The notes beneath the pieces were generated by a model, which ran no database searches, had not been told where the DNA came from, and worked only from the letters and a program-made list of their open reading frames with translations. Of a DNA stretch of 64,000 bases, positions 52,831-54,861 are shown one piece after another. The DNA lies in the sequence record PQ863256.1; one strand, given 5' to 3'. The DNA is from Escherichia phage Ptacy1479. The position numbers and the translations under genes were made by a program. How positions within the stretch are numbered: the stretch's first letter is position 1; every line of letters starts with the position of its first letter.

Positions 52831-54861
52831 TTAACCTCTATTCAATGAACATTTAGGAGAATTACAATAAACTTGATTCATAGAACCAAGCGTACAACTT
52901 TCAGCATCGCGCCACGGAATCTGCTTAAAACACTCTGAACAGTAACCGAGGGTTGACCACATTGCTTTGGTGAAGTCAGTGCTTCGGTTTCCGTCGAAGC
53001 TGACAACAGTTTTGCGGAGAGCTGTTCGTGATTCAGGAAACACACCTGCTTTCTCAGCAGGTTCCTCCTTTTTTGGCTTAGTTGAGATTGCAAAAATACT
53101 GTTGCTACGTTTCTCAACATAAGCATCAACAACATCCTCCAGAGTGATGCCTGTCTGTTTCGCTGAGGAAGGTAATACAGTCATACGACCAATCATGTCT
53201 TCAGTTACACGTAAAGCAAATTCAGGACGACGGGCGTTTGTTGTATCTGTTGCTTTAATCCAGACATAACCATCTTTGATCGTAGCATTAGACACTTTCT
53301 TCTTTACTTCTACAGCGCAGACTTTACAGATATCTTCACCACGAAGACGACTAAGTTCATCATCGAACTCGTTCTCTGTTTTAACTTCACCGCAGATTTC
53401 ACAAACACCAATAGGAGTTTCCTCCTCTTCTTCCTCTTTAGGTTTAGTCAAACCTTCCAGACATTCAGGATGCCAGTAGCATTGATATGCGAAGACCGCT
53501 TTAGGTGCATCCTTCCAATCAATGTGTTTGTCACAACCGCCACAGTCACCATGAGAGTGTGCTTCCCAGAATTTACGAGTGATAGTAACGCCATTCTTGT
53601 TGACGAAACTATCATTCATGTCAAAAGGGATATCATCATCAAAGTCAGCAGTAGTAGACTCAGGCTCCTTTTTCTCCAGAGATGGGTCAACAAAACGACC
53701 TGCTGTGATCACTAAACGGACCATAGCATTGACTTCGGAGATGCAGGATACTGTCCCACGGTAAACAATTTTAGGGTCTTTCAGGGCATCCTGATAAGCC
53801 TTAATGTCTACGTTATGAACATCACCTTCGATATACTCTTGAGACTTCTCATCGTAGATATAACCAATCATCTTACCACGAGAAGGAACAGCACCAGCAG
53901 TTGCATAAGGAATAAATTCATGTGGTGTAATCTCCACAGTCATGTCGCGGCGAATGTCAATATTTCGATCGCTTGCGATTTTGTTTTGACTTACCACTGC
54001 GTTTCTTCGACGAACGTCTGCCGCTGTCACGCCCGGCTTCGTGTCGTAAGGATTGCTTGTATTGCTTTTTGAGGAACTTTGATAGTTGCTTTGGCTGTAG
54101 TTGTTCGAGTAATAACTGCCCCAACGATTGGCTACCGTAAAAACCGGAAGCTCGTGGGCGACCTCTTCAACCAGAGTCATGCCGTTGTTTGACATATCAA
54201 AGATATACTCTGTACCAACTTTACATTCAAAATGCTCGTCAATACGGTTCTTATGAGACTTAGAACGCTTCAGAATCCACATCAACATATCTTCTTCAGA
54301 AGCACCAAACCAATCTCTGTTACAACGTGCGAGGTGGAATGGACGCTCTTCGTTACGGATGATATGAAGGCGGTTATCAGAAGCATCATGCCAGATTAAA
54401 GTGAAAGCACCATCCAGCTTTTGAATAGTCTCTGCTGCACCAATGGTGTTAATAGAGTGGCAGATGTTCTCACTGTCTACCTCGAAGTTTTTGCTGTCAG
54501 GTAACAGATCTTGGTCCATCAAGGTTCCATTATGAACCAGAGTGATGTTACCATGTTGGAAAGGATGGGCGTTCTTGGCGTTAACTGCACCTTTCGTTGC
54601 ATGACGACTGTGACCAACAATCCATGAAGGTGCTACAGTGTAAGCTGTTTCACCAGTGGTGTGCTTCTTGTACTCATCTTGTAAGATGAATGCGAAAGAA
54701 GGAAGAGCTTCTTTATAAGTGAAGACTTCCTTAGTGCTTTTACGCTGACCAAAGATACCAGAGGAATGTTGTCCTCGGAATACTCCAGCATAAAAGAGTT
54801 GGTTGAATACGTCTAAATCGGTGCTTGACAGATTACCGCCAGCTAATACGATGCCACAAAT
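52831..54861 (-). CDS. class-II glutamine amidotransferase domain fused to Cys-rich domain of unknown function; predicted AUU start
   Basis: frame open 113 codons upstream of track TTG start, encoding CGIVLAGG... directly after ATT; stop two codons upstream; AGGTGG 8 nt upstream. Confidence 0.6.
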   Translation of the reverse strand: MCGIVLAGGNLSSTDLDVFNQLFYAGVFRGQHSSGIFGQRKSTKEVFTYKEALPSFAFILQDEYKKHTTGETAYTVAPSWIVGHSRHATKGAVNAKNAHPFQHGNITLVHNGTLMDQDLLPDSKNFEVDSENICHSINTIGAAETIQKLDGAFTLIWHDASDNRLHIIRNEERPFHLARCNRDWFGASEEDMLMWILKRSKSHKNRIDEHFECKVGTEYIFDMSNNGMTLVEEVAHELPVFTVANRWGSYYSNNYSQSNYQSSSKSNTSNPYDTKPGVTAADVRRRNAVVSQNKIASDRNIDIRRDMTVEITPHEFIPYATAGAVPSRGKMIGYIYDEKSQEYIEGDVHNVDIKAYQDALKDPKIVYRGTVSCISEVNAMVRLVITAGRFVDPSLEKKEPESTTADFDDDIPFDMNDSFVNKNGVTITRKFWEAHSHGDCGGCDKHIDWKDAPKAVFAYQCYWHPECLEGLTKPKEEEEEETPIGVCEICGEVKTENEFDDELSRLRGEDICKVCAVEVKKKVSNATIKDGYVWIKATDTTNARRPEFALRVTEDMIGRMTVLPSSAKQTGITLEDVVDAYVEKRSNSIFAISTKPKKEEPAEKAGVFPESRTALRKTVVSFDGNRSTDFTKAMWSTLGYCSECFKQIPWRDAESCTLGSMNQVYCNSPKCSLNRG

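Follow-up and report, generated by a model that had tools for sequence, protein, structure and literature searches.

A putative AUU start codon and its conserved hairpin leader in a phage glutamine amidotransferase gene

We analyzed the 64,000 nucleotides (nt) of Escherichia phage Ptacy1479 deposited as PQ863256.1 (hereafter, the window), which are those of a phiEco32-like Kuravirus; Ptacy1532 is 100% identical to the window, and phiEco32, SU10, and about 60 further Kuravirus genomes are 97-98% identical to it. On the minus strand lies a gene for a predicted class-II glutamine amidotransferase, and comparison with its relatives indicates that AUU at 54861-54859 is very probably the physiological start codon of this gene. 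Across the wider family, AUU and AUC starts are accompanied by a small stem-loop directly 5′ of a strong Shine-Dalgarno (SD) sequence, usually GGAGGA, with a 7-nt spacer. We tentatively propose that a strong SD and a stem-loop whose 3′ end falls 13-15 nt upstream of the start codon form a portable module that would enable or regulate AUU/AUC initiation and that would have been repeatedly gained, lost, and swapped in phage amidotransferase genes of this kind, a proposal that we find credible but somewhat short of probable.

An earlier note on this DNA had described a frame without any start codon for 113 codons, an ATT directly before a Cys codon, and AGGTGG about 8 nt upstream, and every coordinate of that description was verified on the minus strand, which reads AGGTGG ATTAGAAA ATT TGT GGC ATC GTA; the sequence after the TGT (Cys, 54858-54856) is CGIVLAGGNLSS. 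The frame translates as ...QVD*KICGIVLAGGNLSSTDLDVFNQLFYAGVFRGQHSSGIF... and is open through to the stop at 52831, with an in-frame TAG (54867-54865) and an AAA (54864-54862) directly 5′ of the ATT. Codons 1-113 after the ATT contain no ATG, GTG, or TTG, and the first of these to appear are codons 114 (TTG) and 115 (ATG); near-cognate codons were listed over the first 200 codons of the frame. From the ATT to the stop, the gene has 676 codons and a product of 76.1 kDa, while the product from the TTG would have 563 amino acids (aa), a mass of 63.8 kDa, and no Cys1. Stop-to-stop frames of at least 150 codons with at least 40 start-less leading codons number three in the 64-kb window, the other two being an antisense shadow of the amidotransferase and a frame that probably extends the capsid gene by frameshifting, and the start-less stretch of the amidotransferase is more than chance.

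Amidotransferases of the N-terminal nucleophile (Ntn) type require Cys as residue 1, exposed by Met removal. The GATase domain takes up the N-terminal ~250 aa of the product, and the C-terminal ~430 aa are Cys-rich. Pfam assigned the N-terminal part to GATase_6 (E=1e-14, 55 bits, cutoff 27), and a match to GATase_7 (27.4 bits, cutoff 25) also lay above its curated threshold. A profile built from ten phage homologs (alignment A1) matched the glutaminase domain of GlmS (1xff, E = 2.9e-8) as well as PurF and AsnB; the profile was required, as a single-sequence phmmer search against the PDB gave no match. In the 10 divergent homologs of A1, C1-G2-I3-V4 is invariant, and so are the glutamine-site residues R28, G82-H83-R85-A87-T88-G90, N110-G111, and D128, the motifs aligning with HTRWATHG, VHNG, and ETDTE of GlmS. 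With Cys first, the profile match, and the glutamine site in place, the gene is predicted to encode a class-II (PurF-type Ntn) glutamine amidotransferase. The earlier note held that the open reading frame (ORF) track, which starts at the TTG, misses the entire catalytic domain, and this has to be narrowed: the track loses the N-terminal 113 of the ~250 domain residues, including the Cys1 nucleophile, R28, and the GH-R-AT-G and VHNG motifs, but D128 and the remainder of the domain are retained.

Several comparisons point to the AUU as the start. Six orthologs, those of Privateer, GAP52, Vp_R1, 7-11, Aeromonas 4_4572, and PJNS034, have an SD followed by ATG-TGT at the homologous position, with 43-58% identity in the GATase domain. 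The ATT is invariant in 96/96 Gordonclarkvirinae records from three genera, in all of which the 55-nt core at 54910-54856 is also 100% identical. Among the 96 are Suseptimavirus ECBP2 and Nieuwekanaalvirus EP335, whose amidotransferase proteins are just 81-85% identical and whose flanking 700 nt fall into bands of 60-90% identity, in contrast to the invariant leader core. Over codons 1-113, the comparison with EP335 gave a proportion of synonymous differences (pS) of 0.69, a proportion of nonsynonymous differences (pN) of 0.13, a dN/dS ratio of 0.08, and differences by codon position of 16/13/60; the comparison with ECBP2 gave a pS of 0.76 (saturated), a pN of 0.16, and 22/15/65. Neither frameshifts nor stops were found in these codons across the 96 genomes, and with a dN/dS of ~0.08 the start-less codons are under strong purifying selection. 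As the in-frame stop lies two codons before the ATT and the next upstream gene ends only 80 nt away, there is no other source of Cys1. The ATT is thus the sole position yielding the mature protein, and it has functional SD spacing and AUG orthologs, as would be expected of an AUU-initiated gene of the infC/pcnB type. The proposal of the earlier note that translation starts at AUU is strengthened by the ATG orthologs, the invariance of the codon, the dN/dS, the upstream stop, and the SD spacing, and also by the leader of Aeromonas phage BUCT695 described below.

Gene callers in many records have placed the start at the TTG or ATG of codon 114/115, and, if they were right, codons 1-113 would be untranslated, leaving the GATase N-terminus as a relic in decay. 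The mass of that form, 63.8 kDa, is the one given in the SU10 proteomics table. We consider this extremely unlikely, as the dN/dS of ~0.08 with saturated synonymous sites covers exactly those codons, Cys1, R28, GH-R-AT-G, and VHNG are invariant in 10 divergent phages, 96 genomes are free of frameshifts and stops there, and the codon-114 product would have a split Ntn fold without its nucleophile. Since the expected mass in the SU10 table is that of the TTG-start form, the search database probably did not contain the N-terminus, on which the table is therefore uninformative; CGIVLAGGNLSSTDLDVFNQLFYAGVFR is an example of a tryptic peptide within residues 1-113 of the 676-aa form. An error of sequencing or assembly, in which an ATG was turned into ATT or the upstream stop was introduced, has the general rarity of ATT starts in its favor and nothing more. 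The leader is identical in 96 genomes sequenced independently in many laboratories and also in IMG/VR and metagenome contigs, and ATT/ATC recurs in unrelated lineages, so that the probability of such an error is close to vanishing.

The leader itself is more strongly conserved than any other part of the locus. Over 5.9 kb aligned with ECBP2, at an overall identity of 69%, no perfect run exceeds the conserved block at 54911-54854, and because the adjoining synonymous sites are saturated, each of about 50 noncoding leader bases is constrained. BUCT695, which belongs to another family (Grimontviridae), has the same leader and ATT, ATGAAAGGGTTAACCCTTCAGGCGGATTAGAAAATTTGT, with 90-93% identity to the window at -40..+19 versus 30-60% in the flanks on both sides, and its amidotransferase protein is 53% identical, no nearer than the ATG-type relatives. 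The leader hairpin (Table 1) can be extended to GAAAGGGUUUACCCUUC with one bulge, and it runs up to the SD, ending 15 nt upstream of the AUU. BUCT695 retains the stem, has TTAA in place of the TTTA loop, and carries the SD variant AGGCGG. The leader also holds an in-frame mini-ORF of 9 codons, whose stop is 3 nt before the ATT (UAG-AAA-AUU) and whose length and frame are kept in Kuravirus, ECBP2, EP335, and BUCT695 (MKGLTLQAD* in the last). The earlier note had mentioned neither the mini-ORF nor the hairpin, the conservation of the leader, or the recurrence across the family.

The ribosome-binding site (RBS) unit of the mini-ORF, AGGTTAATTAGATG, is similar to the main one, AGGTGGATTAGAAAATT, which suggests a local duplication or insertion that may also have created the hairpin out of the ancestral SD. 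Comparison with GAP52 (TAGATGAAAGGATTTTTAGT-ATG) further suggests that, upon insertion of new sequence, the former SD (AAAGG) was turned into the 5′ arm of the stem. The two similar RBS units lie at 54870-54907 on the minus strand, where AGGTTAATTAGA-TG precedes the ATG of the mini-ORF and AGGTGGATTAGA-AAATT precedes the ATT.

Bacterial genes very rarely start with AUU or AUC. We drew relatives of the N-terminal domain from IMG/VR (the best 80 of 290 matches), from metagenomes (the best 80 of at least 190 matches), and from cultured phages, and read the codon before the aligned Cys. Among 131 distinct loci, this codon was ATG in 90, ATT in 21, ATC in 5, TTG in 9, GTG in 1, TGC in 1, and GAG in 4, the GAG loci being bacterial PurF-type and excluded; AUU/AUC starts thus account for ~20% of the distinct loci of the family (26/131). 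At all AUU/AUC loci, the reading frame is closed by a stop 6-57 nt upstream, and no canonical start lies between this stop and the AUU/AUC in 26/27 loci checked, the exception being L078 (at -21). AUA was found at zero of the 26 distinct AUU/AUC-start loci. Among cultured phages, ATC is the codon in Pseudomonas phage O4 and Klebsiella phage Klyazma, whose annotated genes begin at internal codons, and ATT and ATC are swapped among near-identical relatives (L121 vs L083; L152 vs Klyazma). A neighbor-joining (NJ) tree with Fitch parsimony gave a rough figure of ~16 or more independent changes of start codon. One clade (L101, L153, L154, L158, and L160) has the weak start UUG together with a strong SD but lacks the hairpin, and ATG was unseen in its sampled members.

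For counting purposes, leaders less than 70% identical were treated as separate lineages, and a leader was called structured when the 27 nt upstream of the SD had a minimum free energy (MFE) of -3 kcal/mol or below. By this measure, 15/16 AUU/AUC lineages are structured, compared with 8/69 AUG and 1/8 UUG/GUG lineages, and the difference between AUU/AUC and AUG is strong both as a count (Fisher p = 4e-10) and as a ranking (Mann-Whitney p = 5e-9). When nearest relatives were paired by protein identity, the AUU/AUC leader was the more structured one in 14/16 pairs (Wilcoxon p = 5e-4). The hairpins of the AUU/AUC loci end 10-16 nt before the start, mostly 13-15 nt, and are built from ~14 unrelated stem sequences. 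Stem changes that preserve pairing through wobble were seen in GGCTAC vs GGCTGC (L083/L121) and in AAAGCC vs AAAGCT (L152/Klyazma). The clearest exchange is between L152 and L153/L154, whose proteins are 98-99% identical and whose upstream flanks are the same: L152 has TAAAGCCATTGGCTTTCGGAGGATAATATT-ATT, with the hairpin and GGAGGA, whereas L153/L154 have AGAGGTGTAAT-TTG, with AGAGGTG and TTG. In these loci, hairpin, SD, and AUU have been exchanged as a single cassette.

These patterns can be joined into a mechanism. Initiator tRNA would read the AUU, and Met removal would then expose Cys1 as the N-terminal nucleophile. Because the catalytic Cys must be residue 1, the position of the start is fixed, and tuning could act only through the start codon and the leader; because AUU/AUC would be decoded by initiator tRNA and the Met removed, the protein would be unchanged and only the rate or regulation of its synthesis would differ. 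Initiation would be driven by the AGGUGG SD 8 nt upstream of the AUU, and we infer that the hairpin abutting this SD assists initiation there. It may dock or stack on the platform of the 30S ribosomal subunit, prolonging its dwell on a codon that initiation factor 3 (IF3) discriminates against, or it may instead stabilize a poorly translated mRNA. A role in translation is suggested by the fixed position beside the SD, and, as they have no U-tracts, the hairpins of the AUU/AUC loci are not terminators. In the Kuravirus/BUCT695 lineage, ribosomes terminating at the mini-ORF UAG may add re-initiation of the kind known from infC to de novo initiation. The earlier note took the enzyme to be deliberately weakly translated, which may be so, but the strong SD, the hairpin, and the possibly coupled mini-ORF point to expression that is tuned and not simply kept low. 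The sequence anatomy, the homology of position with the ATG orthologs, the selection on the start-less codons, the conservation of the leader, and the association of AUU/AUC with the hairpin are shown by the data, and from them we infer initiation at the AUU, a function of the hairpin, a translated mini-ORF, and sensitivity to IF3.

A variant of this scheme is that the AUU is used mainly by ribosomes that re-initiate after translating the mini-ORF, with the 30S subunit retained by AGGUGG. The mini-ORF has an ATG with AAAGG 8 nt upstream, its frame and length are shared by Kuravirus, ECBP2, EP335, and BUCT695, and the 20 nt upstream of the hairpin that contain its RBS are perfectly conserved as well. 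The geometry of a stop, 3 nt, and AUU is that of infC, where re-initiation provides about half of the output (PMC3592434), and upstream ORFs of at least 8 codons that end 4 nt before the ATT are present in L066, L076, L079, and L131, those of L152 and L100 having just 5 codons. However, an upstream ORF that terminates close to the start is absent from most AUU/AUC lineages, BUCT695 does not have the AAAGG, and the hairpin begins 1-3 nt after the mini-ORF ATG, where it would impede loading of the 30S subunit. The mini-ORF of BUCT695 differs by only two substitutions, both nonsynonymous, and this fits a constraint at the level of the RNA and not of the peptide. We consider predominant re-initiation rather unlikely and favor a start at AUU to which re-initiation may contribute.

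The mini-ORF also permits another route to Cys1. Ntn amidotransferases with propeptides exist, and low-frequency readthrough of the UAG from the ATG at 54894 would give MKGFTLQVD-X-KI-CGIV..., with a 12-residue propeptide that would be autocatalytically cleaved, the route taken by Bacillus subtilis PurF. The metagenome set did include PurF-type loci in which residues precede the Cys (the GAG-TGC rows). On the other side, the phage frame does not run uninterrupted from a canonical start into the Cys codon as that of B. subtilis PurF does, because the TAG at 54867-54865 intervenes, and ARAGORN found no tRNA gene in the window that could provide a suppressor. The other ~15 AUU/AUC lineages have no in-frame canonical start upstream of the stop, so that readthrough would be unusable there, and the ATG orthologs begin directly at Met-Cys. 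Readthrough would also leave a good SD 8 nt from the AUU unexplained, and no conserved stimulating structure was found downstream, with nothing above noise in Rfam over 54600-55100. We regard readthrough as very unlikely compared with initiation at the AUU.

A number of observations weigh against our interpretation of the start and of its leader. What speaks for a role of the hairpin is a correlation only, as the AUU lineage L082 lacks it and 8 of the AUG lineages show some folding in the corresponding segment. The count of independent events comes from an NJ tree of poor resolution. Upstream of the mini-ORF, AAAGG is not conserved in BUCT695, which has AAATG, and our interpretation does not account for the 20 nt perfectly conserved upstream of the hairpin. 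The mini-ORF ATG is in frame with the amidotransferase, with a single UAG between them, an arrangement kept in BUCT695 that would permit readthrough with a propeptide. Finally, SU10 proteomics reported gp85 from 9 peptides whose positions are not given, with an expected molecular weight of 63.8.

To our knowledge, infC and pcnB are the classic AUU cases of E. coli. In reporters, AUU gives 4- to 8-fold less expression than AUG, and the infC junction, in which a stop is followed by 3 nt and AUU, yields 2x as much as AUU in a monocistronic context but only a quarter of what its AUG version yields, with re-initiation and de novo initiation contributing about equally (PMC3592434). The phage gene resembles thrS-infC in having an AUU with a functional SD and a stop 3 nt before it (UAA-GGU-AUU in infC and UAG-AAA-AUU in the phage), and its output would by analogy be several-fold below that of AUG, with de novo initiation and re-initiation combined (PMC3592434). 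It differs in that the upstream ORF has just 9 codons, a hairpin abuts the SD, and the product is not a translation factor and has no obvious autoregulatory loop. In E. coli pcnB, which encodes poly(A) polymerase, AUU limits the level of the enzyme according to Binns and Masters 2002, as cited in PMC3592434. Both pcnB and the phage gene are enzyme genes with an AUU start, but in the phage the position of the start is locked by the Ntn Cys1. We know of no family-wide recurrence and no position-fixed leader hairpin for pcnB. Structured standby or 30S-docking elements 5′ of the SD (e.g., PMC3936740) share the small stem-loop at a fixed distance to the start, whereas the phage hairpin is specifically tied to AUU/AUC across many lineages.

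In the literature searched, we found no discussion or experimental test of ATT/AUU starts in these phages or this enzyme, no description of a link between AUU/AUC starts and a hairpin, and no prior report of the leader conservation, the mini-ORF with its infC-like geometry, or the family-wide pattern of AUU/AUC with a hairpin. If the portable leader module were real, it would be a previously undescribed, structure-defined determinant of bacterial non-AUG initiation, and it might counteract the discrimination by IF3 on the 30S platform, which could give phages an expression switch sensitive to IF3 or to the state of the ribosome. The family is also a natural replicated data set on how ribosomes accept near-cognate starts, with ~14 hairpin sequences and natural cassette swaps, and the leader, at ~60 nt, is compact and directly testable in E. 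coli.

The AUU call for this gene is not new, as the annotators of phiEco32 made it in 2008: the phiEco32 record (EU330206, phi32_83, ABY52884.1) begins the coding sequence (CDS) at this ATT, and so do the records of SU10 (gp85), LAMP, and Bas91. In phiEco32 gp83 and SU10 gp85, which are the same gene with the same ATT, the start was an annotation choice only, and the SU10 paper does not discuss the start codon of gp85. Many other records, such as those of Ptacy1532, EP335, and ECBP2, begin at the internal TTG/ATG or leave the leader unannotated, and the gene is truncated in most of the GenBank records for Kuravirus, Suseptimavirus, Nieuwekanaalvirus, and several Zobellviridae (O4 and Klyazma). 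Because the truncated records drop the catalytic Cys, automated annotation systematically misdescribes the enzyme. In most Kuravirus records, no feature spans the leader or the ATT, and the internal CDS starts of O4, Klyazma, Ptacy1532, EP335, and ECBP2 (L100, L102, L002, L004, and L005) lose the catalytic Cys.

Table 1. Features of the amidotransferase locus and its neighbors in the window
Feature	Position	Strand	Basis
ATP-grasp enzyme, downstream neighbor, phiEco32 gp80 ortholog	51194..52387	-	Weak sub-threshold RimK and Dala_Dala_lig_C matches; phiEco32 annotation
Full CDS, predicted class-II (Ntn) glutamine amidotransferase, phiEco32 gp83 ortholog	52831..54861	-	phiEco32 record annotates the same span
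Internal TTG, codon 114	54520..54522	-	Start in the ORF track and many GenBank records
Perfectly conserved 58-nt block: leader plus ATT, TGT, GG	54854..54911	-	Longest perfect run vs ECBP2
TGT, predicted catalytic nucleophile Cys1	54856..54858	-	C1-G2-I3-V4 invariant in A1
ATT (AUU), proposed initiation codon	54859..54861	-	ATG in six orthologs; invariant 96/96
In-frame mini-ORF ATG AAA GGG TTT ACC CTT CAG GTG GAT TAG (MKGFTLQVD*)	54865..54894	-	Sequence
SD AGGTGG, 8-nt spacer to ATT	54870..54875	-	Anti-SD duplex -7.0 kcal/mol
Leader hairpin AAGGG-UUUA-CCCUU	54877..54890	-	MFE -6.1 kcal/mol, -38..-12 segment
AAAGG, SD-like, 8 nt before mini-ORF ATG	54903..54907	-	Read from sequence
Terminator-like hairpin GUGCCUCU-GAUAA-AGGGGCAC after amidoligase stop, without a good U-tract	54913..54933	-	Fold
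Amidoligase_2 family gene, upstream neighbor, phiEco32 gp84 ortholog	54941..56044	-	PF12224, E=4.5e-8, and annotations

The amidotransferase lies in a cluster of amidoligase, GATase, and ATP-grasp genes, with two small ORFs separating it from the ATP-grasp gene (Table 1), and its neighbors are likewise found in LUZ24, tf, NV1, and BUCT695. A phage gene cluster of amidoligase, ATP-grasp, and GAT-II was reportedly described by Iyer, Aravind and colleagues in 2009. The C-terminal ~430 aa gave no Pfam match and no recognized synthase or acceptor domain. Like enzymes of the PurF/GlmS/AsnB type, the phage protein has an N-terminal Cys nucleophile and the R, N-G, and D motifs of the glutamine site, and it differs from them in this C-terminal part, in the amidoligase/ATP-grasp cluster, and in the use of AUU/AUC at ~20% of loci. 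The C-terminal region (52831-54100, minus strand) contains three zinc-ribbon-like Cys clusters, CGGC...C..C, CEICG...CKVC, and CSEC...C..C, and an acidic EEEEEE stretch.

Upstream of the invariant leader, the terminator-like hairpin at 54913-54933 has a stem that differs yet pairs in ECBP2 (GGGCGCTCT...AGGGCGCA) and EP335. An Rfam scan of 54600-55100 (E up to 10) returned only noise and no known RNA family (the top match reached 16.7 bits, the gathering score being 44), a sigma-70 and terminator scan found no coding-strand promoter in the leader, and the leader occurs once in the window, with no copies elsewhere in it. Two alternative folds were rejected: a long-range pairing of GGUUAAU with the early coding region, present in the MFE fold, is not conserved in BUCT695, and an SD-sequestering hairpin, GGUUUACCCUUCAGGUGGAUU, consists mainly of G-U pairs and is broken in BUCT695. 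The consensus of the gp36-dependent promoters of phiEco32 is AATGTA (PMC12276001), and a gp36 promoter in the Kuravirus leader was rejected, as AATGTA is absent and AAGGTT is found instead. A AAATGTAA motif is present upstream in BUCT695 and in the ATG-type Grimontviridae relatives. A conserved motif that contains AATGTA, TTTAAATGTAA, lies 18-22 nt before the ATG start in L023, L027, L006, and L007 and ~39 nt before the ATT in BUCT695 (L017, ~2505-2516), and its counterpart in the Kuravirus leader is TTTAAAGGTTAA. A promoter function of this AATGTA motif is doubtful, as the published geometry would put the start of transcription inside or after the SD.

Elsewhere in the window, a -1 frame that is open for 286 codons at 7779-8639 on the plus strand overlaps the major capsid ORF (6799-7860, plus strand; SU10_MCP, E=6e-77). 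The Big_2 Ig-like domain encoded in this frame starts 27 codons before the first ATG of the frame (7944), and a heptamer of the X_XXY_YYZ type, G_GGA_AAG, lies at 7839-7845, 5 codons before the capsid stop. Judged from these sequence features, the overlap looks like a programmed -1 frameshift that would yield a capsid-Ig fusion.

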